Part shown: positions 3,895 through 22,611 of the stretch, in pieces
Layout of the letters: each line of letters opens with the position of its first letter
Numbering within the stretch: position 1 is the stretch's first letter
Assembly: GCA_035385585.1 (NCBI GenBank)
Contig: DAOOKJ010000003.1
Location: 1 to 60,333, forward strand
DNA length: 60,333 nucleotides
Source of the DNA: Minisyncoccota bacterium
GTDB lineage: Bacteria; Patescibacteriota; Minisyncoccia; UBA6257
Direction: 5' to 3'
Position numbers and translations under genes: made by a program
The notes under the pieces: generated by a model
Database searches by the model: none
What the model saw: the letters and a program-made list of their open reading frames with translations, nothing else
What the model was told of the DNA's origin: nothing

Positions 3895-4605
3895 TTAAAT
3901 CACTTCCGCCATTGCTTGAATCAATCCTAAATTTTTCTCATAAGGCATTCTTTTAGAACCCAAAATGCCAAAAATTCCATCTCTAAAATGCGACTTTTCT
4001 CCTAAAAAACTCAAGCAATCAATTTTAACGAAAGGGTTCTCTCTCCCGATATAAACCAAAGGGCCCTCTTTTATCTCTAAATTTTTAACCTGATTGTCAA
4101 AACTTTCAAGAGATTCGGCAACTTTTTCTATTAATTCTAAAACATTATCTTGGCTATTATCAATATTAGCAAAAAGATATCGCAACCCTCTTTTAATTAA
4201 TAGTTGGTCATCCAAGAGATAAAAGAAACTAAACGATTTTGTTTCTTCAGACAGAAATTCAACCGCTTTCTCAAAATCCTTAAAAATCGATGTTCTTTCT
4301 TTTAACTTGTCAAACCATTTATTTTTCCACTCATCAATTTCGCCGCTTTCAAGAATATTGGAAATAAAAAATTTTAACGCCTTGTCAGTCGGCAAACGGC
4401 CGCTTGAGATATGGCTTTTATAGAGATACCCTTCTTTGCTCAGCTTCTGAAAATCATTTCTAATCGTTGCTGAACTTAAATCTAAATGATAATGATAAAC
4501 TAAAAAACTAGAAGCCACTGGCTCGCCTTTTTCCAAATAAGAACTGACTACTTTTTGGAGAATTCTTTGCTTTCTTTTTTGAAATTCCTCTTTTATCACT
4601 ATCAT
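3895..4605 (-). CDS. hrcA: Heat-inducible repressor HrcA (short form)
   Basis: N-terminal winged helix GEPVASS...SSATIRNDFQKLSKEGYL...SSGRLPT matches the HrcA signature. A CIRCE element lies upstream. Confidence 0.8.
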   Translation of the reverse strand: MIVIKEEFQKRKQRILQKVVSSYLEKGEPVASSFLVYHYHLDLSSATIRNDFQKLSKEGYLYKSHISSGRLPTDKALKFFISNILESGEIDEWKNKWFDKLKERTSIFKDFEKAVEFLSEETKSFSFFYLLDDQLLIKRGLRYLFANIDNSQDNVLELIEKVAESLESFDNQVKNLEIKEGPLVYIGRENPFVKIDCLSFLGEKSHFRDGIFGILGSKRMPYEKNLGLIQAMAEVI

Positions 4606-4793: not shown

Positions 4794-5702
4794 ATGAAAC
4801 AAGTCTTTAGGGGCAAAATCATCTGGATAGATATTCACAATCCAACCAACCAAGATTTGGAGTATGTGGCTAAAAATTATAAGTTGCATCCTTTAATTTT
4901 AAAAGAATTAGGAACTCCCAGCCAGCGTTCTAAAGCAGAAATCTACAATGACTATATTTATCTAGTGACTCATTTTCCTTATTGGGATCCAGTAAAGCAA
5001 ACCTCTGTTCCTTGGGAATTAGATGTCATCATCGCCAAGCATTCTTTAATCACTTCCTCTTATGGCCCAATGATAGACGCCCATCAAGAAATTCTGGAAC
5101 AAGTTTATCAAAAAGATTTTGAAGACAATTATTTGAATGAAGTCTCAAAACTTTTTTATTTCATCTTCACTCAATATCTTAATTTTGCTATGCGTCAGAT
5201 TGTTCACATTCAAGAAAAAATAAATAAAATTGAAGGAGAGATTTTTGCCGGAAAACACCAGCAAGTTATTCCTTTAATTTCTTATACCAAAAGAGATGTT
5301 TTAAATTTTAGAAGAATCTTCCGTTATTTAAAAGAGGATATTAATTCTTTAGTGCGGCGGGGGCCGATGATTTTAGGCGAGGGCTCAAAAATTTATTTTG
5401 AAGATTTGATGGGAGAAAGTTTAAGAGTTGATAATATTATAGAAGGCTTTAAAGACACAATTGAATCTTTAGAAAATACCAATAATTCCTATATTGAATA
5501 TAAAATCAATCTTTTGACCAAGATTTTTACTGTCGTTTCTTTTATCGGTTGGCCAACTTTAATCATTATTAGCGCCTTTCAAATGAATGTTAAAAATCTA
5601 CCTTTGATCGGCAAACCATATGATTTCTTTTTAGTTTTAGGGGTTGCTCTTATTCCTGCTATTGTTTTTTATTTAATCCTCAAAAAGAAAAAATTGCTTT
5701 AA
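4794..5702 (+). CDS. CorA-family divalent cation transporter-like protein
   Basis: 302 aa with two C-terminal TM helices joined by FQMNVKNLP, where CorA has YGMNF..MP. Soluble N-terminal domain. Confidence 0.7.
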   Translation: MKQVFRGKIIWIDIHNPTNQDLEYVAKNYKLHPLILKELGTPSQRSKAEIYNDYIYLVTHFPYWDPVKQTSVPWELDVIIAKHSLITSSYGPMIDAHQEILEQVYQKDFEDNYLNEVSKLFYFIFTQYLNFAMRQIVHIQEKINKIEGEIFAGKHQQVIPLISYTKRDVLNFRRIFRYLKEDINSLVRRGPMILGEGSKIYFEDLMGESLRVDNIIEGFKDTIESLENTNNSYIEYKINLLTKIFTVVSFIGWPTLIIISAFQMNVKNLPLIGKPYDFFLVLGVALIPAIVFYLILKKKKLL

Positions 5703-5709
5703 AATCGCA

Positions 5710-7164
5710 ATGAAACTTTATAACACTCTTACTAAAAAAATTGAAGTTTTTAAACCCCTGAAAGACAGGCGTGTCGGCCTTTATACTTGCGGCCCGACAG
5801 TTTACGATTATGACCATATAGGCCATGCTTGGAACTACACTATGGCTGATTTATTGCGCCGAACGCTTGAATTTCTTGGCCACAAAGTAACTCATGTAAT
5901 GAATATTACTGACGTTGGCCATTTAACTTCAGATGCTGATACCGGTCAAGATAAAGTGGAACAAAGCGCTAAAGAACATAAAAAAACCGCTTTTGAAATT
6001 GCCCAATATTTCACTAATATTTATCTTTCAAATCGGCACAAAATGAATATGCTTGAACCAAATGTTATTTGTAAGGCAACTGACCATATAAAAGAAATGA
6101 TAAATCTAATAGAAAAAATTTATGAAAAAGGGGCGGCTTATATTATTGATGACGGTGTTTACTTTGATGTTTCAAAATATCCAAAATACGGTCAACTCTC
6201 TGGCAATACTTTAGAGAAATTAAAAGCCGGGGCAAGGATTGAAGTTAATCCTCAAAAAAAACATCCGGCAGATTTTGCTTTATGGAAATTTACTCCAAAA
6301 GGAGTAAAAAGGCAAATGGAGTGGGACTCGCACTGGGGTAAAGGTTTTCCCGGTTGGCATATTGAATGTTCAGCTATGTCAATGAAATATTTAGGAGAAA
6401 GCTTTGACATTCATACTGGTGGAGAGGATAACATTTTTCCCCATCATGAATCAGAAATTGCCCAGGCAGAAACTGCCACCGGAAAGCAATTTGTTAAATA
6501 TTGGTTTCACCCTCGCTTTTTACTGGTTGAAGGACAAAAAATGTCAAAATCTCTCAAAAATTTCTATACGATAAAAGACCTTGAAAATAAGGGATTCGAG
6601 CCTTTAAGTTTAAGGTATCTTTTTTTAACTAGCCACTATCGCCAGCGATTTAATTTCACCTTTAAGGGGCTGAAGGCAAGCCAGGTATCTTTGGAAAAAA
6701 TAAGAGAATTTATAAACAAAATTGTAGCAGAAGCAAAATTAACAAAAAAACAAACGGAAAAAAATATTTCAAAAAAGAAAACAGTCAGTCTCAAAAAATA
6801 CCAAGAAGAGTTCAGAAAAGCGATTGAAAACGATTTAAACATTCCAAAAGCCTTAAGCACTTTATGGAAACTTATAAAAGATTATAATAAAAATCCGTCT
6901 AAATTTGATCCTAAAAAAGTTTATGCTTTAATTTTAGAATGGGATAAAGTTTTCGGTTTAAATCTTAAAGAAGTAAAACCAATTAAAATTCCAAAGCAAG
7001 TTGCTGAACTGGTCAAAAAACGAGAGGAATATCGTAAGAACAAAGACTTCAAGAAAGCTGATGAAATCAGAAAAACAATAGAAAAATTAGGATATTTAAT
7101 TGAAGATACAATAAAAGGACCAAAAATATGCCTCCGGAAGAAAAATTACCACCTCAAAACATAG
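5710..7164 (+). CDS. cysS: Cysteine--tRNA ligase
   Basis: HIGH-type motif (DHIGHAWNY), KMSKS present, WHIECS zinc site. Confidence 0.95.
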   Translation: MKLYNTLTKKIEVFKPLKDRRVGLYTCGPTVYDYDHIGHAWNYTMADLLRRTLEFLGHKVTHVMNITDVGHLTSDADTGQDKVEQSAKEHKKTAFEIAQYFTNIYLSNRHKMNMLEPNVICKATDHIKEMINLIEKIYEKGAAYIIDDGVYFDVSKYPKYGQLSGNTLEKLKAGARIEVNPQKKHPADFALWKFTPKGVKRQMEWDSHWGKGFPGWHIECSAMSMKYLGESFDIHTGGEDNIFPHHESEIAQAETATGKQFVKYWFHPRFLLVEGQKMSKSLKNFYTIKDLENKGFEPLSLRYLFLTSHYRQRFNFTFKGLKASQVSLEKIREFINKIVAEAKLTKKQTEKNISKKKTVSLKKYQEEFRKAIENDLNIPKALSTLWKLIKDYNKNPSKFDPKKVYALILEWDKVFGLNLKEVKPIKIPKQVAELVKKREEYRKNKDFKKADEIRKTIEKLGYLIEDTIKGPKICLRKKNYHLKT

Positions 7165-8501
7165 AAGCAGAAGAATCTGTTTTGGGCGCTTTAATTATAG
7201 ACAATAATGCTATTGTTAAAATTGCCGATATTTTATTTCCAGAAGATTTTTATTTACCAAAACACCAGCAGATTTTTGAAGCAATTTTGGATTTATACAA
7301 AAAAAATGAGCCGGTTGATGTTCTATCTTTGACTAACAGGTTAGAAGAAAAAAATCTTTTAAAAGAGATAGGCGGAGTTAGTTTTCTAACTTCTCTTGTT
7401 AATAAAACTCCAACCAGCGCTCATGTTGTTCATTACGCTAAAATTGTTCATGATAAAAAGATACTAAGAGATTTAGTAAGCGCTTCTTACCAAATCGCAG
7501 AATTGGGTTTTAATGAAGAAGAGGATGTGAGTAATGTTTTAGACAATGCCGAGCAAATTATCTTTAATATTTCGCAAAAATCTATCAGTTATGAATTTAT
7601 TCCTTTAAAAGAAGAGTTAGTCAAAGCCTTTGAAAGAATTGACCAACTCCATAAAGGCGGCGGTAAATTACGAGGACTAACAACTGGCTTTAGCCAGTTA
7701 GATAAATATTTGGCTGGCCTGCAAAAATCAGATTTAATTGTTTTAGGGGCAAGGCCTTCTTTAGGAAAAACTTCTTTGGCTTTGGATATCGCCCGCCATG
7801 TCGCTTTAAGGGAAAGAGTACCTGTTGGAATTTTTAGTTTAGAAATGTCTCGCGACCAAATTGTTGACAGATTAATTGCCGCTGAGTCGACTGTTGACTT
7901 ATGGAGAATTAGAACTGGTAGCCTTTCTACCGAAGGAGAAATAAATGACTTTACTTTAATTCAAGACGCATTATCGCGCTTAGCCGAAGCGCCTATCTAT
8001 ATTGACGATGCGCCTTCGCCAACTGTAATGCAAATGAGAACTGTTGCCAGAAGACTCCAAGCAGAAACAGGGTTAGGATTACTTGTCGTTGATTATCTCC
8101 AATTAATTACCCCTTCCTCTCTTAAAGAAAGCGCGGTCCAACAATATTCTGAAATCTCTCGTTCGCTCAAAGCGCTATCCCGAGAACTTAATGTTCCAGT
8201 TTTAACAGTTTCCCAGTTGTCGCGGGCAGTTGAGCAGCGTTCACCCCCAATTCCCAGACTTTCTGACTTAAGAGAAACCGGCGCCATTGAACAAGATTGC
8301 GACGTGGCAATGTTTATTTATCGGGAAGATAGATATAATCCTGACTCCGAAAAGAAAAATATCGCTGACATTATAATCGCCAAGCACCGCAATGGTCCCT
8401 TAGGCCACATTTCTTTGTACTTCAACGAACAATTAACCAGTTTTAGAAATCTGGAAAGAGAAGAATATACCAGTGAATTTGAAGAATTAGAAGGAGAGTA
8501 A
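7128..8501 (+). CDS. dnaB: Replicative DNA helicase DnaB
   Basis: PPQNIEAEESVLGALI N-terminus, Walker A GARPSLGKTS, RecA-like C-terminal domain. Overlaps the cysS 3' end by 37 nt. Confidence 0.95.
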   Translation: MPPEEKLPPQNIEAEESVLGALIIDNNAIVKIADILFPEDFYLPKHQQIFEAILDLYKKNEPVDVLSLTNRLEEKNLLKEIGGVSFLTSLVNKTPTSAHVVHYAKIVHDKKILRDLVSASYQIAELGFNEEEDVSNVLDNAEQIIFNISQKSISYEFIPLKEELVKAFERIDQLHKGGGKLRGLTTGFSQLDKYLAGLQKSDLIVLGARPSLGKTSLALDIARHVALRERVPVGIFSLEMSRDQIVDRLIAAESTVDLWRIRTGSLSTEGEINDFTLIQDALSRLAEAPIYIDDAPSPTVMQMRTVARRLQAETGLGLLVVDYLQLITPSSLKESAVQQYSEISRSLKALSRELNVPVLTVSQLSRAVEQRSPPIPRLSDLRETGAIEQDCDVAMFIYREDRYNPDSEKKNIADIIIAKHRNGPLGHISLYFNEQLTSFRNLEREEYTSEFEELEGE

Positions 8502-16212: not shown

Positions 16213-16284
16213 ATTTTTTATTAATTTATATTTACCTCTACATTATATCACTCATATCTAGAATTATCAAAGAATTATGATAAA

Positions 16285-16470
16285 CCTCTGAAGGGCAGAC
16301 TAATCGGATAAAATATTTAAAAAAGTAGTGAAGGAGAGAGTTTTTTATCCTCCATAGCTTTAAGCGTAGGGGGATTCCTTCGTTCCTGAAAATCAGGGGA
16401 AGGGGCACTACTCTTTTTATATCCTTTTTGTCTGCCCTTCAGAGGTAACGACTGAAATTTAAGTCGCTAC
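16285..16470 (-). promoter_or_regulatory. Structured 5' leader domain upstream of the 400-aa ORF
   Basis: A perfect 16-bp closing helix, cctctgaagggcagac (16285-16300) with gtctgcccttcagagg (16430-16445), encloses 129 nt with nested helices (gtagtg/cactac, cctga-aaa-tcagg, ggata/tatcc). A further hairpin follows at 16445-16470. Confidence 0.45.
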
Positions 16471-16484
16471 TTAATTACTGATGT

Positions 16485-16515
16485 ATTATAGCACATTACT
16501 TCTCTCCTCCTTCAA
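16485..16515 (-). promoter_or_regulatory. Putative extended -10 promoter for the 400-aa ORF
   Basis: Minus strand reads GTAATGTGCTATAAT, the same 15-mer as promoter P1 at 22583-22597. The -35 is weak (TTGAAG at 19-nt spacing). Confidence 0.4.
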
Positions 16516-16600
16516 ACCTAAGATAAAAAATCTTAAACTTGAAGGAAGAAAGGAGGTTTTAACCCAATTATGGAAACCTCCCAAAAACTCCATTTAAACC
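16499..16600 (-). repeat. Hairpin module copy 1 (long hairpin H1 plus GGAGGTTT/AAACCTCC extension)
   Basis: Arms cttctctcctccttcaa and ttgaaggaagaaaggagg, followed by ttttaacccaattatggaaacctcc. This copy lacks the second, shorter hairpin H2 that accompanies H1 in copies 2-5; the promoter above replaces it. Confidence 0.7.
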
Positions 16601-16623
16601 CATTTACTCGTTCGATTTTATAT

Positions 16624-16800
16624 TTATAGAACTACCTGTGTAGCGATGAGAACAACGAAAATCCACAAGAAAAACTTAAGGGTGAACTTTACAAATTCAT
16701 CCTCATCGTCCACTAGCTCATTTATCGTAAGGTGAAGAAAGCCACCAAGATAGGAGAGCACTAAACAAAACAAAATTTTTAAAATGATCTCCTTCACCAT
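16624..16800 (-). CDS. 58-aa two-TM mini-protein (below the ORF-track cutoff)
   Basis: AAGGAGG, then 5 nt, then ATG. Translates to MVKEIILKILFCLVLSYLGGFLHLTINELVDDEDEFVKFTLKFFLWIFVVLIATQVVL. Paralogous to the 50-aa ORF at 17939-18091. Confidence 0.6.
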   Translation of the reverse strand: MVKEIILKILFCLVLSYLGGFLHLTINELVDDEDEFVKFTLKFFLWIFVVLIATQVVL

Positions 16801-16805
16801 CTTTA

Positions 16806-17044
16806 CCTCCTTTTTCTCCTTTTGTTCCCTGCTATTACTGGTCAGGTATCCAGGAGAAACTGGATCTCAGATCCTCTAAGATCCAGTATTAAAAAGACAA
16901 TGATTTTTCTTCTTAATGCTGAATCTTAGAACTCATTCCAAGAAGTTTTTCTCTTCCTTTTCAAGGTGCTAAGAGGATTTCTCCTCCTTCAAATCTAAGA
17001 CTCATTGTCTTAAACTTGAAGAAAGAGAGGAGGTTTTAACCCAA
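16806..17044 (-). repeat. 239-bp direct repeat, copy A (leader of the 58-aa ORF; contains module copy 2)
   Basis: Base-for-base identical to 17669-17907 by manual comparison. Begins at the SD (cctcc) and ends at ttttaacccaa. Confidence 0.9.
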
Positions 17045-17102
17045 CTTTGCTACCAAGCACCTCCTCAAAAAAATTAAACTTGATAGCAAAACAATATAGC
17101 TA

Positions 17103-17663
17103 CTAGCTAATTATTATATCTATAATTCTCCCCTCTGGAGGGGGAGAAAAGAACCCTAATATTCTTCTTTTTACCACTATATTCTTCCCTTCTTTGAGGG
17201 CTCTATAAGCCCTCAATTCATTGTGGCACCATCCACATAATTTTAAAAAGGATTCGAGATCATTCTCTGTTGTCCCTATAAACTTTAGAGACACTATTTC
17301 TCCCTCGAAATTCGCTTTGACTATTTTTTTCAAGTTAACTGAATCTAAAAAACTCTTTAAGTAATCTGTCATACTGGAAGTGTTAACTGCATCTACTCTT
17401 CTTCTAATATCTTCAAACAGGTCTCCTAAATTTTTATAAATATCAATTCCTGTTTGAGATAGGATGAACTCTCTAACTTTTTCATATTCTTCCCATGTGC
17501 CTGTCATTAATCCTTTCACCCAATCACTTTTCAATGTAAAAGTGATTGGGGATACTTGTGGGATACGCAAATAGTATCCTGTTCCTGCGTTCCATCCTTT
17601 ACTGCCGAAGCTTTCATACCCGGCCTCGGCATCTATTAATCCAAATAATTTTATTTGGACCAT
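17103..17663 (-). CDS. Hypothetical protein (186 aa)
   Basis: AAGGAGG, then 5 nt, then ATG. Uninterrupted ORF, G+C-richer than host genes, no motif recognised. Confidence 0.65.
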   Translation of the reverse strand: MVQIKLFGLIDAEAGYESFGSKGWNAGTGYYLRIPQVSPITFTLKSDWVKGLMTGTWEEYEKVREFILSQTGIDIYKNLGDLFEDIRRRVDAVNTSSMTDYLKSFLDSVNLKKIVKANFEGEIVSLKFIGTTENDLESFLKLCGWCHNELRAYRALKEGKNIVVKRRILGFFSPPPEGRIIDIIIS

Positions 17664-17668
17664 CTCTT

Positions 17669-17907
17669 CCTCCTTTTTCTCCTTTTGTTCCCTGCTATTA
17701 CTGGTCAGGTATCCAGGAGAAACTGGATCTCAGATCCTCTAAGATCCAGTATTAAAAAGACAATGATTTTTCTTCTTAATGCTGAATCTTAGAACTCATT
17801 CCAAGAAGTTTTTCTCTTCCTTTTCAAGGTGCTAAGAGGATTTCTCCTCCTTCAAATCTAAGACTCATTGTCTTAAACTTGAAGAAAGAGAGGAGGTTTT
17901 AACCCAA
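17669..17907 (-). repeat. 239-bp direct repeat, copy B (leader of the 186-aa ORF; contains module copy 3)
   Basis: Identical to 16806-17044. Confidence 0.9.
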
Positions 17908-17938
17908 TTATGGAGACCTCCTAAAACTCCATAACCCA

Positions 17939-18091
17939 TTATAAGGCACTCATCAGGAGAAGAATTATAAGACACCAAGAAAATACTTGGAGCCTCGTCT
18001 TTCTCCTTTTATCCTCCACTTCCATAGAGATGAGGAGATGGAGGATCAACCCGTAACCAATAATGAGGCCACAAATAACAACGTATCTCAA
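17939..18091 (-). CDS. 50-aa two-TM mini-protein (TTG start, below the ORF-track cutoff)
   Basis: AAGGAGA, then 7 nt, then TTG. Translates to (M)RYVVICGLIIGYGLILHLLISMEVEDKRRKTRLQVFSWCLIILLLMSAL. It shares a C..G..LHL.I...V.D...F.W pattern with the 58-aa ORF. Confidence 0.5.
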   Translation of the reverse strand: MRYVVICGLIIGYGLILHLLISMEVEDKRRKTRLQVFSWCLIILLLMSAL

Positions 18092-18163
18092 TTTTTATTC
18101 TCCTTTGTCCCTGGCCTTAAAGGTTTAAGGGAGTTATCTCCCACCAGAGGGGTAGCTCAATAC

Positions 18164-18218
18164 ATCTTGCCACCATAAAAATTCTTAAAGATTTTATGAA
18201 TCTTTATGGTGGCAAGAT
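18164..18218 (-). repeat. Conserved hairpin H3, copy a
   Basis: atcttgccaccataaa pairs perfectly with tttatggtggcaagat. Repeated at 19018-19074. Confidence 0.7.
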
Positions 18219-18240
18219 ACAAAATAAGACATAGATAAAT

Positions 18241-18374
18241 TTCTCTTCCTTTTCAAGGTACTAAGAGGATTTCTCCTCCTTCAAACCTAATATCGGAATA
18301 ATAAGCTTGAAGGAAGAGAGGAGGTTTTAATTTTTTAAGCGGAGACCTCCTACTAATTTATAATGCAACTCCGC
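18241..18374 (-). repeat. Hairpin module copy 4 (H2 plus H1 plus gcggag/ctccgc hairpin)
   Basis: ttctcttccttttcaaggtactaagagga, then tttctcctccttcaa...ttgaaggaagagaggagg, then gcggagacctcc...ctccgc. Confidence 0.7.
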
Positions 18375-18387
18375 AAAATTCTACAAG

Positions 18388-18939
18388 TTAGTCTAGTAAG
18401 TCATTTTCCTCCCCTGTCAGAGCAAGAACACCATCTGAACTAATTTTATAAATGTATTCACTTGGTGCCCCGTATAATCGTCCCCCAACAGTCATTTTTA
18501 TCGTACTACCAAATCTACATTTTAATATCCACTGTCCACCACTACCCATTGCCCCTGCTGCTCCTTGAGCAATAACACCACTTAAAATCTCCTTTACTCC
18601 TTCTGATATTGTTATATCATTACTGCCTCGAAATCCAATATGTCCTCTAAGAACAATAATACATTCATTCTCTGTTTTATTCTCGTGAGCAATCAATTTT
18701 GGACGACCAGAATGAGTTTCACCTATCTCTCCATCAAATATTATAACATTTCCTTTTTCATCTAGTTCGTTCATCTCTTCCGGGGTCAAACCACTTACGG
18801 GTAAAACCCCGAGACGTCTTCCTCTTCCCTCTTCTCCTACCAAAATTGCGGGTATTGTGATTTCTTTATTGTGAAATATAAACAATTGCACAATACCTCC
18901 CATAAATACTGTTGAACCTTTAATTGTAAAAATCTTCAT
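18388..18939 (-). CDS. Hypothetical protein (183 aa, Gly-rich AQGAAGAMGSGGQ segment)
   Basis: AAGGAGG, then 5 nt, then ATG. Uninterrupted ORF, no motif recognised. Confidence 0.65.
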   Translation of the reverse strand: MKIFTIKGSTVFMGGIVQLFIFHNKEITIPAILVGEEGRGRRLGVLPVSGLTPEEMNELDEKGNVIIFDGEIGETHSGRPKLIAHENKTENECIIVLRGHIGFRGSNDITISEGVKEILSGVIAQGAAGAMGSGGQWILKCRFGSTIKMTVGGRLYGAPSEYIYKISSDGVLALTGEENDLLD

Positions 18940-19017
18940 TATATCCTCCTTTTACCCACCTGTATCTTTCGATATTCAGGCGTTCTAGTTGGATCCTAGA
19001 ACTTTTGGGTGTGGTAG

Positions 19018-19074
19018 CATCTTGCCACCATAAAAACTCCTAAAGATTTTATGAATCTTTATGGTAGCAAGATG
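19018..19074 (-). repeat. Conserved hairpin H3, copy b
   Basis: catcttgccaccataaa pairs with tttatggtagcaagatg. The single change relative to copy a is a C.A mismatch in plus sense but a G.U wobble in minus-sense RNA. Confidence 0.7.
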
Positions 19075-19093
19075 TAATTAGACAGTTCTGCAC

Positions 19094-19232
19094 TTCTCTT
19101 CCTTTTCAAGGTACTAAGAGGATTTCTCCTCCTTCAAGCTTAATATCCAACATATTAAACTTGAAGGAAGAGAGGAGGTTTTAACCCAACTTATAATTTA
19201 TATGGAGACCTCCCAAAACTCCACCTAAACCC
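19094..19232 (-). repeat. Hairpin module copy 5 (H2 plus H1 plus extension)
   Basis: ttctcttccttttcaaggtactaagagga, then tttctcctccttcaag...cttgaaggaagagaggagg, then ttttaaccc...atggagacctcccaaaactccac. Confidence 0.7.
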
Positions 19233-19442
19233 CTCGCTCTTTTCACAGTAGGTTAGCAAAACCTACCAACCTGGCTTTTGGTCTTTTATGGCCAGGTTAC
19301 TTATCGTCTTTCTCAGCCCTCTATTTTATCAAGGTGAGAAATAGCGATAGTCCCTCTTTGCTTCGGCTTTGGAGATGGTTCTCGCGAACCAGCCGATTCC
19401 CGCGGTCTGACGAGGGTTCCGCGGGAGATTACTTATAAAGTC

Positions 19443-19676: not shown

Positions 19677-19968
19677 TTTTCTTTCCTCCTTCTGACTCAA
19701 AATTTCCCTGAGGGGCGAGTCACTCCTTGTTGATGGTTCAAACGGCTAAATTTAGCCTCCCACCGCACTAGCATTTTACTAGCCTCAGGTAGTTAGTTTT
19801 TTCTTTTTTGTCTTATTAAAAGCTCAAGACAAAAAAGAAAAATTTAGCTTTCCAGGGCTGCTAACCACAACCCCAACCAAGCTGGCTGCCTCATCAGTTT
19901 CAAGTAGCCAACCTGGAAAACCATTAGAAATGGTTTCGGCTTTGCTTGGTTGAAATAAAAAGATAAAA

Positions 19969-20000
19969 AAAGAGGGCTATACAAATATTTGTAGCCCTCT
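19969..20000 (-). terminator. Intrinsic terminator downstream of the 416-aa ORF
   Basis: Minus sense reads AAGAGGGCUAC-AAAUAUUUGUA-UAGCCCUCUU followed by UUUUUUAUCUUUUU. Confidence 0.6.
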
Positions 20001-20055
20001 TTTTTATTAATTTTTCTTATCTTATTTTCCTTATCTTAAGTTTTTTACTCTTTCT

Positions 20056-20156
20056 AACAAGTAGAGAGAGAATTAAGAGGGCTACTCAGAAATTCTCTCT
20101 CCACTTGTTAAAATCCTACTTTCAAAGTAAGCGATAAGCAAAATTGTAGCCCTCTT
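20056..20156 (-). promoter_or_regulatory. Set of mutually exclusive helices upstream of that terminator (attenuator-like)
   Basis: aacaagtagagagagaatt (20056-74) pairs with aattctctctccacttgtt (20091-109). This pair is interleaved with aagagggctac (20075-85) and gtagccctctt (20146-56). The latter 11-mers are the same as the two terminator arms. Confidence 0.3.
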
Positions 20157-20354
20157 TGCCTGCCTAAATTTTTGCTTCTCAAAAATTTAGGCAGGTAGAT
20201 TTTTCAATTTTCTCCTAATTTGAATCTACTATTTTCTAAATAATAAACTCAAAGGGCAAACTCTTTCTAAATTCGCCATATCTTGGTGAACTTGGATAGA
20301 GAAGGGAAGAGGAAGAAAGCCTCTTCCCTTACAACCCTTTATAACCCACTGCCA

Positions 20355-21611: not shown

Positions 21612-22495
21612 CTCCTTGCCCCTACCTGCCTCTTTTATGAGGTCAGGGCTTATGGGGTGCTAAATCCTTTCAGATTCGGCTTTAAAAAGATAAAGAATTA
21701 TCTCCTTAAAGCCGAATCTGAGAATTCATTTCAAAGAATTTCAAGGTATTTCTCTAAATCAAACAATACCTTAGTTTGATTTAGATATTACTAAGATTCT
21801 TGGGGATTTTATATTTTAAAGGTGCGAGAGGGTAAGGGCACGGATTGGATTGTGCCCTTACCATAAGTTGTGTCGAGTAAGCAAGGTCCCGCTTGCTTAC
21901 CCGCCTTGCTTTTTCAATTGTCTGAAAAAGCAAGGCGGACAAGCAAAGAAAAGTGGGTTAGGCTTTTCTTCTTGTCCCTCCTAATCGGATTTTTAATCCT
22001 AATTAGGGGTGATAGGGGTTAAAGAATTAAAAGGAGCAAAACTCAACAATTAATTCATTTAACGAAATTGAAATTAAACCCTCGTCTTGGTTTAATCCCA
22101 ATTATTTTCCCCTATCAATTTAAGACGAGAAAACTAAAAAATATTTATTTTTCAATTCACTCTCTCCTTGAATACTCTCTCCTTAAAGAAAGTGAAAGGT
22201 AAATATTTTTTAGTTTTTATTTCAAGGTGCTATATTTTGCTTATTTTGATAAAACGCTATCTCCCCAAGCTGAGGAGAGAATTAAGGATTAATTTAAATA
22301 ATTTAAATCCCTAATTTTCTCATTACCTTGGAATAAAAAAGCGGCTAAAGTTTATTTTCTAAGAAGAGAAATCGGGCTCTAATATCAAACTTTTAACCGC
22401 TTTTGCTTAATTTCCGGTATTAAGCTCACCGACTCTCTCCTTAAGTTATTTAATTATAGGGTGCTTTTTTTCTTTATTCTGCCTATTTTTTAAGT
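21612..22495 (-). other. ORF-free, hairpin-dense ~0.9-kb leader or candidate large structured RNA
   Basis: No minus-strand ORF of 60 aa or more. At least 12 helices of 9-18 bp, mostly perfect, for example 21671-85/21706-20, 21831-41/21852-62, 21901-14/21925-38, 22130-47/22200-17, 22337-53/22388-405. Lies downstream of two consensus promoters. Confidence 0.4.
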
Positions 22496-22501
22496 ATCTC
22501 A

Positions 22502-22530
22502 ACTATAGCACACTTTTAATAAAATGTCAA
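22502..22530 (-). promoter_or_regulatory. Sigma70-type promoter P2
   Basis: Minus strand reads TTGACA, then 17 nt ending in TGTGC, then TATAGT. Confidence 0.6.
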
Positions 22531-22582
22531 ATAGAAATTCCTCTTTAAGTTAGTTTTAACTTCTCACTTTATTTTGTCTTTA

Positions 22583-22611
22583 ATTATAGCACATTACAGC
22601 AAAAATGTCAA
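22583..22611 (-). promoter_or_regulatory. Sigma70-type promoter P1
   Basis: Minus strand reads TTGACA, then 17 nt ending in TGTGC, then TATAAT. Perfect hexamers with an extended -10. Confidence 0.65.

Follow-up and report, generated by a model that had tools for sequence, protein, structure and literature searches.

The 60,333-nucleotide (nt) stretch of DNA from a Minisyncoccota bacterium analysed here (contig DAOOKJ010000003.1, hereafter the window) carries an island of small co-oriented genes punctuated by five copies of a structured RNA module. The module is a genuine, strand-specific and covarying RNA of an undescribed family, and the RNA-scaffolded cassette arrays to which it belongs are of a previously undescribed kind in bacteria of the candidate phyla radiation (CPR); a literature search found neither the motif nor such arrays in CPR bacteria described. 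The reading that we favour, and to which we attach about even probability, is that this conserved cis-acting module punctuates a cassette array of Patescibacteria (Paceibacteria- or Parcubacteria-like) as a processing and insulation signal, and that its repeats drive the turnover of the cassettes.

Fold and strand specificity of the module

The five copies that a preliminary description had placed on the minus strand are found at the same sites by repeat finding, which returns one five-member family of about 99 nt per copy, by MAFFT, with which all five can be aligned, and by a covariance model, R1, built from ten module copies (Table 1). The alignment and covariance model that had been proposed as a check thus recover every window copy. 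Over the window R1 yields exactly five significant matches of 100–132 bits, confined to a single island and lying throughout on the minus (gene) strand; the plus strand at these sites scores 31–43 bits, and no further significant copy is present in the window (best E = 0.31). An exact pattern for the arms of the long hairpin H1 matches four times, compared with 0.00 matches expected from 100 shuffles.

Read 5′ to 3′ on the gene strand, the module consists of an optional hairpin P1, a short helix Pa, the hairpin H1 and a single-stranded tail AAUCCUCUUAGCACCUUGAAAA, beyond which a long hairpin X and a conserved 5′ untranslated region (UTR) carrying the Shine–Dalgarno sequence (SD) of the next gene follow. 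Pa is formed by GGAGGU with an ACCUCC located 18–28 nt further 3′, and the 5′ arm of H1 (UCUCUUCCUUCAAG...) starts on the base right after ACCUCC, such that Pa and H1 probably stack coaxially. In copies 1, 3, 4 and 5 the GGAGGU sits within the loop of P1, and Pa and P1 therefore constitute an H-type pseudoknot. The short hairpin initially described as enclosing GGAGGU is thus confirmed for these four copies, but not for copy 2, which lacks P1 and instead has a small hairpin, GCU-UGGU-AGC, 3′ of GGAGGU within the Pa loop. H1 itself is an uninterrupted stem of 22 base pairs (bp), G·U pairs included, in all five copies when folded in minus sense, rather than the 13–17 bp first assigned to it, and is interrupted by mismatches when folded in plus sense. 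Its 3′ arm terminates in GAAGGAGGAGA, after which copies 2–5 carry AAUCCUCUUAG(C/U)ACCUUGAAAAGGAAGAG. The whole modules fold with minimum free energies of −38 to −53 kcal/mol and z-scores of −3.8 to −5.5. Four copies contain UUGGGUUAAAACC, in place of which copy 4 carries AAAAAAUUAAAACC; copy 4 is without UUGGGUU.

Since Pa takes the six bases immediately 5′ of H1, the two helices adjoin without overlap and are compatible, which leaves the three mutually exclusive folds suggested earlier without support. As read from the sequence, the 3′ arm of H1 can in this clade also join the tail in an alternative hairpin, AGGAGGA-GAAA-UCCUCUU, with a 7-bp stem and a GNRA loop, which would be relevant only once H1 had been opened or cut. 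The second hairpin of the preliminary description, H2, is found in copies 2–5 and absent from copy 1, as reported, but it is not conserved as a hairpin: its outer helix is missing in the related genomes L172 and L181, where the conserved part is UAGCACCUU(G/U)AAAA only, a motif seen again in the leaders.

Alignment A5, with 12 modules taken from four genomes, served to test the structure. In H1, 98.1% of cells are paired, 15 of the 22 pairs are altered on both sides, and all five measures computed for it lie above each of 500 shuffles, while sliding its partners by 1–3 columns as a control lowers the pairing to 49–63%. The H1 cells comprise 219 Watson–Crick pairs, 40 G·U pairs, one A·C and four others. 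On the opposite strand the 40 G·U cells would be A·C mismatches, and the imbalance of 40 G·U to one A·C thus indicates selection on the gene-sense single strand, bearing out the earlier view that the arm mismatches favour a minus-sense RNA. P1, which was counted directly from the sequences (a MAFFT alignment of its region, A6, is not structure-aware and was set aside), ranges from 5 to 10 bp and covaries, as in GUGGAG/CUCCAU, GCGGAG/CUCCGC, UUACAGAG/CUCUGUAA and UUUUGCAGAG/CUCUGCAAAA. Similarly, Pa retains its position and pairing while its sequence varies (GGAGAU/AUCUCC, GGGGUG/CACCCC, GGGAAGG/CCUUCCC, GGGGGAGC/GCUCUCCC and GCAUCAGACU/AGUCUGGUGC). Compensatory changes, on which the preliminary description had made its RNA depend, are therefore present in H1, P1 and Pa. 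In three genomes (the window, L181 and L185) the terminal module stops right after H1; in the window it is followed by a structured non-coding RNA. Thus, P1-Pa-H1 behaves like the 3′ element of a cassette, and the tail, hairpin X and UTR behave like the 5′ element of the next one.

Array layout, related arrays and cassette turnover

The window is part of a bacterial chromosome, with an RNase P RNA, tRNAs, an L10 leader and a ribosomal-protein operon. Its G+C content is about 32%, compared with 35–40% within the module island, which is flanked on one side by a dcw-type cluster ending with a penicillin-binding protein gene and on the other by housekeeping genes; the open reading frames (ORFs) of the island have no match in Pfam, PHROGs or NCBIfam. 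The array is preceded by a leader with two consensus promoters, and from the first gene to the last module there is no sigma-70-like site of at least 10/12. A typical junction comprises module, hairpin X, conserved 5′UTR with SD, and gene. Hairpin X spans 21–26 bp in the window and occurs there in two sequence types, D3 and D4, the latter with a homologue at L172 2265-2320 in which the stem covaries. The 254-nt unit, which contains the module from UUGGGUU on, a D3 hairpin X, the conserved 5′UTR GGGAACAAAAGGAGAAAAAGGAGG and the start codon, forms direct repeats that bracket a 186-amino-acid (aa) gene and have their left edge at UUGGGUU.

The same order of promoters and leader, module-separated cassettes, trailing structured RNA and flank gene is syntenic in the window, L172, L181 and L185, the promoters and leader being observed for the window and L172, as the examined DNA of L181 and L185 begins inside the array. 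L172, a metagenome-assembled genome of Candidatus Paceibacterota, was the one genuine hit among 56 single matches, a number close to a rough chance estimate, in a pattern scan of a one-genome-per-species collection that does not include the window's own species. Homologues of the 400-aa flank protein pointed to L181/L182 and L185/L186, and two such homologues are annotated in NCBI as Pacebacteria and Parcubacteria. The pieces shared by blastn are all non-coding, namely the leader, the modules, an element 5′ of P1, hairpin X, the 5′UTR and the trailing RNA. By blastn no relation is seen among the cassette genes of the four arrays, not even for L181 and L185 with their 86% identical flank proteins. 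Conversely, the module is kept, with compensatory changes, in genomes whose flank protein is just 57% identical.

Further afield, the remote arrays L021 and L066 and the lineage of L103 and L113 retain the core design, in which a purine-rich/pyrimidine-rich Pa abuts a 19–23-bp hairpin that is followed by AAA, GUUYUUUGAAAA, hairpin X and the gene; this Pa-H1-AAA-...UUGAAAA design is found in three array lineages. When R1 was applied to 92 other loci, mostly with homologues of the gene for a 183-aa cassette protein, no new module was found: the sole significant matches are in L182, a duplicate of L181, and the other match listed is a weak one in L116, a copy of L113. This indicates that the module is tied to the array type and not to the 183-aa gene. 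Contigs L012-L020 represent the same strain from many digester metagenomes and carry identical modules, which makes them uninformative for comparison; they break at the 254-nt repeat. A strict descriptor of Pa, H1 and tail returned the clearest copies only, all on the gene strand, and is too strict for a census. The pattern CTTCAAG...TTGAAGGAGGAG has 11 matches in viral contigs, all by chance within unrelated sequence, and the single match to TTGGGTTAMAMCCTCCTCTC is irrelevant.

At the DNA level, the single module of L181 is a chimera of two modules of L185, its left part (through the H1 5′ arm) corresponding to module a and its right part (loop and 3′ arm) to module b, between which L185 has a 76-aa cassette. 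Judged by the sequences, this is the footprint of the gain or loss of a cassette through recombination between two modules. The check proposed at the outset is thus borne out, in that related islands gain or lose cassettes at module positions, with the L181/L185 joint falling inside H1. The second of the two mapped joints lies elsewhere, at UUGGGUU. The array is integron-like in having co-oriented cassettes, a content that varies between close relatives and a repeat at the boundaries. Among the window ORFs scanned, those of the island and its flanks, no recombinase domain was found with Pfam, PHROG or NCBIfam. Because the joints differ, no recombinase domain is detectable and attC hallmarks are lacking, homologous recombination between repeats is the simpler reading, and the arrays document integrase-free cassette turnover via the DNA of repeated RNA elements.

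Proposed intercistronic processing and its alternatives

One junction of the array, before an 85-aa ORF, holds a candidate type II hammerhead ribozyme (Table 1), in which the core CGAAAC...CUGAUGA is intact and stem II is extended (ACCAAGC...GCUUGGU). It is followed by a hairpin with 39-nt arms (19776-19864) and preceded, just upstream, by a bidirectional terminator-like hairpin at ~19958-20015. The hammerhead candidate and the modules therefore hold equivalent junction positions. In addition, the family of the 183-aa cassette gene is ribozyme-associated, with three Hammerhead_II and two Twister-P5 matches at Rfam gathering thresholds among 37 loci that carry homologues (for ribozyme-associated genes, see Weinberg 2015, as cited in PMC4604425). 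Hammerheads that occur in clusters flank variable genes and have been proposed to split long transcripts into gene-length mRNAs (Perreault 2011, PMC3088659), while what underlies the gene associations of ribozymes is still unresolved (PMC6765202).

From the position of the modules and by analogy with these ribozymes, we infer that each module serves as an intercistronic processing and insulation signal in an array that would be transcribed from the two consensus leader promoters; among the functions listed in the preliminary description, a processing or stability role is the one best supported on these grounds. RNase III could cut the 22-bp duplex, or a single-strand endonuclease could cut the conserved single-stranded tail. 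Either cut would part the cistrons, leaving the upstream mRNA with a 3′ end made of pseudoknot and hairpin, and the downstream one with a 5′ hairpin. The module would thereby do the job thought to be done by hammerhead and twister ribozymes at equivalent junctions, while its repeats, as DNA, would supply the homology for cassette gain and loss.

This reading draws on the hammerhead-equivalent junctions and on the likeness of the array to the hammerhead clusters described previously (PMC3088659). It draws also on the lengths of H1 (22 bp in the window copies, about 19–23 bp in all relatives) and hairpin X (21–27 bp), both of which have the roughly two turns (20 bp or more) of intercistronic double-stranded RNA taken to mark an RNase III site, on the conserved single-stranded tail being flanked by two hairpins, H1 and X, and on L185, where the trailing RNA starts directly after the last H1 without a promoter, which implies processing there. 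The RNase III hairpins of T7 early and late mRNAs (R1.1 and others) are likewise long (~20 bp or more), intercistronic and without a U-tract, and the stem left over after cleavage stabilises the upstream mRNA. The T7 sites differ, however, in containing internal loops and in lacking a conserved pseudoknot or tail at their flanks.

Several observations weigh against processing as the function. The terminator-like hairpin and attenuator-like repeats within the array mean that a single transcript is not assured. Flanks conserved to the degree of UUGGGUUAAAA or UAGCACCUUGAAAA are not normally required by RNase III sites; these segments hint that a specific protein binds or that a tertiary fold is formed. 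A pure processing role leaves the persistent SD-like and anti-SD-like composition of Pa and H1 unexplained. The same strand, which by GC skew is the lagging-strand template, may also fold as G·T-tolerant single-stranded DNA, and the covariation comes from an alignment fitted to the model and from few, related sequences. Ribozyme, protein-binding and translational readings stay alive on account of the SD-like/anti-SD-like composition and of linkers that are very conserved.

Among these, it is unlikely that the catalytic core of a new, protein-free class of self-cleaving ribozyme is made up of the pseudoknot of P1 and Pa together with H1 and the nucleotides conserved in the junction and tail. 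Structured RNAs repeated at the junctions of co-oriented small variable genes of unknown function are what the module arrays share with ribozyme clusters, as well as the hammerhead candidate at one junction and a cassette gene whose homologues adjoin Hammerhead_II and Twister-P5. Such a context, enriched in hammerhead and twister, has previously yielded twister-sister, pistol and hatchet (PMC4604425, PMC6765202), and the unpaired nucleotides of the module are strongly conserved. The topology is reminiscent of pistol (RF02679), in which a hairpin loop makes a ~6-bp pseudoknot with the strand directly 5′ of a second hairpin, also in a ribozyme-associated context: in eight clade-A copies, P1 is present and its loop pairs as GGAGG(U/G):ACCUCC directly 5′ of H1, and a possible P2, GGGUU/AAUCC, brackets the arrangement. 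Yet this P2, which can pair, is invariant and never covaries, with its 5′ strand absent from copy 4 and its 3′ strand from terminal copies such as copy 1. Pistol has a strict 2-nt (GU) P3–P2 junction and ten highly conserved nucleotides (PMC4604425). The module has neither, and H1 ends ...GGAGGAGA with AAUCC directly next. Its P3 equivalent is 22 bp long, and its P2 is only a candidate. Moreover, searches of Rfam 15, including hammerhead, twister, twister-sister, pistol, hatchet, HDV-like and Drum, gave no ribozyme or cis-regulatory match to the module at the gathering threshold or at E <= 10, whether over 6.7 kb or over 171 nt; low-stringency matches are to generic hairpins only (microRNA or small RNA). 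The module differs from the ribozyme clusters, which lie in prophage-like regions, in lacking a ribozyme core or covariance-model match, in having a perfect 22-bp duplex as its hallmark, and in occupying a fixed CPR chromosomal locus between conserved non-coding flanks. Terminal copies are without the tail, clades B and C are without P1 and the UUGGGUUAAAA linker, and universal conservation extends to little more than two stacked helices and UUGAAAA. Many structured RNAs from ribozyme-type neighbourhoods are not known to self-cleave. Improbable to a similar degree is the proposal that Pa-H1-tail is a self-cleaving or otherwise autonomously processing RNA, a form of punctuation interchangeable with hammerhead and twister in recombinase-free CPR arrays; if true, it would explain why self-cleaving ribozymes cluster around variable small genes. 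A translational device, in which the SD-like and anti-SD-like strands titrate or mimic the 16S 3′ end, or gate ribosomes and uncouple cistrons, would account for the GGAGG-like and CCUCC-like strands that form Pa and H1 in almost every lineage. The ACCUCCUUUCU of copy 1 is identical to the usual bacterial 16S 3′ tail, the 3′ arm of a hairpin at L021 ~7320-7400 bears the SD of the next gene, and the alternative hairpin with the GNRA loop can form. This is nevertheless quite unlikely, given that in the window the H1 3′ arm has no start codon after it, that the real SDs lie 150–250 nt downstream, past hairpin X, that H1 is so stable, by the folding energies given above, as to make switching unlikely, and that one L113 copy has a Pa that is not SD-like.

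A DNA-level role, as a folded single-strand recombination site analogous to attC at which a site-specific recombinase would move cassettes, is very unlikely. Like attC sites and Vibrio cholerae repeats, the modules are imperfect palindromes among co-oriented small ORFs, with variable cassettes and a strand-specific folding signature; close relatives differ completely in cassette content, direct repeats bracket a gene, the folding strand is the lagging-strand template, and the 254-nt repeat has GTTGGGT (= GTTRRRY) at its left edge. However, GTTGGGT in copies 2 and 5 (ATTGGGT in 1 and 3) lies 5′ of the palindrome with no partner inverse core, H1 ending in UCUC/GAGA, so that no RYYYAAC/GTTRRRY pair brackets the palindrome as R''/R' core sites would. 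With 22 contiguous and almost fully paired positions, H1 also has no extrahelical bases and no unpaired spacer. There is no identifiable integron integrase or other recombinase domain in the island ORFs, and the two joints, inside H1 and at UUGGGUU, do not share a fixed point, which fits homologous recombination. Rather, the covarying P1/Pa pseudoknot, the 5′UTR with SD that makes up much of the conserved unit, and the hammerhead equivalence favour RNA. The earlier suggestion of a recombination site delimiting cassettes is, in its site-specific form, not supported. We see little probability in a transcriptional role, either as terminator, as put-like antiterminator or as promoter-proximal element of each cassette. 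Two adjacent hairpins resemble put-type RNAs, terminator-like and attenuator-like hairpins do occur within the array, and the tail TTGAAA looks like a −35 hexamer, but H1 is followed on the gene strand by AAAUCC and not by a U-tract, in agreement with the original statement that the module is no simple terminator, and neither a terminator-like site nor a promoter-like match is called at the modules. Finally, a repeat that is selfish or neutral and itself has no function, whether a miniature inverted-repeat transposable element (MITE), a repetitive extragenic palindromic (REP) element or a local duplication, is scarcely credible and already largely refuted. Copies 2 and 3 with their flanks are 98% identical over 254 nt, the mark of recent duplication or gene conversion, and REP or bacterial interspersed mosaic elements (BIME), enterobacterial repetitive intergenic consensus (ERIC) sequences and MITEs are similarly short palindromic intergenic repeats able to stabilise an upstream mRNA. 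These are dispersed genome-wide in both orientations, whereas copies of the module all point the same way within a single array and share a composite architecture that is conserved. Neither terminal inverted repeats nor target-site duplications accompany them, the window has no copies elsewhere, and among the exact-pattern matches in the genome collection only one contig comes from the L172 genome. Compensatory changes across genomes and the strand-specific G·U asymmetry likewise contradict the MITE-like repeat that had been considered initially.

The clustering of ribozymes (hammerhead, twister, pistol, hatchet) around variable genes is an acknowledged open question (PMC6765202), for which this locus provides a compact and conserved study system, with a fixed chromosomal site, conserved leader and junction RNAs, freely exchanged genes, and a ribozyme and the module at equivalent junctions. 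If the module is processed, be it by RNase III, another nuclease or itself, punctuation would be the selected function, and one that different RNA devices can supply. For CPR bacteria, in which non-coding RNAs have hardly been explored, the module is a candidate for a new RNA family, and it merits experiments as a candidate for a processing element or a ribozyme.

Other elements of the arrays and the 183-aa gene family

Table 1. Positions of the modules and associated features in the window
Feature	Position	Strand	Evidence	Parts and remarks
Module copy 1	16483-16596	minus	R1 match 16483-16596, 100.4 bits; fold	Terminal copy; P1 present; Pa 16576-16581 with 16552-16557; H1 16503-16551; no tail or H2
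Module copy 2	16953-17078	minus	R1 match 16953-17078, 122.8 bits; fold	Pa 17059-17064 with 17029-17034; H1 16980-17028; tail motif 16959-16971
Module copy 3	17816-17935	minus	R1 match 17816-17935, 132.1 bits; fold	P1 (GUU)AUGGAG/CUCCAU(AAU); Pa 17916-17921 with 17892-17897; H1 17843-17891; tail motif 17822-17834
Module copy 4	18245-18377	minus	R1 match 18245-18364, 116.2 bits; fold	P1 GCGGAG/CUCCGC, long loop; Pa 18345-18350 with 18320-18325; H1 18272-18319; tail motif 18251-18263
Module copy 5	19098-19227	minus	R1 match 19098-19227, 131.4 bits; fold	P1 GUGGAG/CUCCAU; Pa GGAGGU 19208-19213 with ACCUCC 19174-19179; H1 5′ arm 19152-19173, loop 19147-19151, 3′ arm 19125-19146; tail with UAGUACCUUGAAA 19104-19116
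Type II hammerhead candidate	19880-19941	minus	Rfam RF02276, 33.9 bits (gathering 37), E = 4.8e-4	
Array leader	21620-22611	minus	blastn to L172, 78-81% identity	Two promoters and ~1 kb conserved non-coding RNA
Consensus sigma-70 promoters	22583-22611 (12/12); 22502-22530 (11/12)	minus	Promoter scan of leader	
Hairpin X, type D4	18163-18218; 19018-19073	minus	Repeat finding	26-bp stem; first copy between module 4 and next gene, second copy 3′ of module 5
Hairpin X, type D3	17722-17811; 16859-16948; 21664-21741	minus	Repeat finding	17722-17811 3′ of module 3; 21664-21741 (76% identical) 5′ of first gene
254-nt unit	16796-17049	minus	Repeat finding	98% identical to 17659-17912
Trailing structured non-coding RNA	16240-16470	minus	Repeat finding	Array 3′ boundary; conserved in L172, L181, L185; closing stem of 30 nt, 16284-16313 with 16417-16446

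The leader, which corresponds to L172 300-1280 and has no Rfam match, includes a terminator-like stem with a U-tract (GCGGUUAAA...UUUAGCCGCUUUUUU, ~22335-22400), the segment UAGCACCUUGAAA at 22220-22232 and a motif, AAAAGCCUAACCCACUU (within ~21950-21980), that is found also in L172, L021 and L066. It may be a riboswitch or attenuator that governs read-through into the array. Within the array, at 19950-20160 (minus), segments AGAGGGCUAC and GUAGCCCUCUU are repeated such that 1:2, 2:3 and 3:4 pairings are possible, with 3:4 forming a terminator with a U-tract; this attenuator-like arrangement is conserved in L185 1385-1570. The trailing RNA, of ~200 nt, has a 6S-like look, with a long closing stem and an irregular interior, and recurs at L172 3400-3620, L181 2020-2280 and L185 2126-2400; it matches no Rfam family (6S, SRP, tmRNA).

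The element located 5′ of P1 in some modules consists of two hairpins (CCUUGG...CCAAGG, UUGGUGGGUC...GACCCCACC, GGAAAAACA.AGGGUUU) and is present at 19235-19300 (minus) in the window, L172 3120-3190, L181 1789-1860 and L185 1195-1265, with no Rfam match. Between the tail motif and hairpin X we note a small hairpin with an invariant loop, CAAAC-NNGGUAU(U/C)-GUUUG, at 21760-21780 (minus) in the window, L172 1093-1120 and 2205-2230, L181 865-890 and L185 40-66. Rejected candidates around the module include a small ORF starting from GGAGGU, which is not conserved and has stops or no start codon in copy 5 and L185, the tail TTGAAA as a −35 box, for which inspection by eye found no −10 at consistent spacing in any lineage, and a sigma-54 reading of UAGCACC...TTG, in which the spacing is wrong.

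The 183-aa cassette protein is encoded at 18388-18939 (minus), and 341 homologues were detected on phage-like contigs and in bacterial arrays (alignment A2), sharing the conserved motifs PAILVGEEGRGR, IGFRGSN, IAQGDAGRMGSG and GRLYGAP. The protein has no sequence match in Pfam, PHROG, NCBIfam or PDB; its AlphaFold model is confident and all-beta (predicted local distance difference test, pLDDT, 87.6), without a fold match in PDB. Directly upstream of the homologue, more than 25 metagenome loci (L043-L087, for example L045 340-415) carry a highly conserved 5′UTR motif of ~70 nt, CUUCCCGGCGGCGGGGAGAAUCAGCCGCACGGGCGGAAGGUCAAAAGACCGGGAGCCCGAGAAAGGAGG, for which the one locus searched, L045, has no Rfam match, and other loci carry a second type of 5′UTR motif, GGGCAGGGAAACCUGCC...CGCUCAACCUGCUGGC.... 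The phage-like contig L023 bears, at 5540-7085, two CRISPR-like arrays with a 36-nt repeat (GTTCGCAGGATAGCTATAGAAGGTTGGAGC...) beside a Cas12f1-like/TnpB-type gene, which are unrelated to the module. In L021, a textbook minimal type III hammerhead (4420-4478; UUCUGUC / CUCGGAU-GCGU-AUCCGAG / CUGAUGA / GUCC-GAGA-GGAC / GAAACAGAA), scored by Rfam at a weak 19 bits, is situated 55 nt upstream of the 183-aa homologue.

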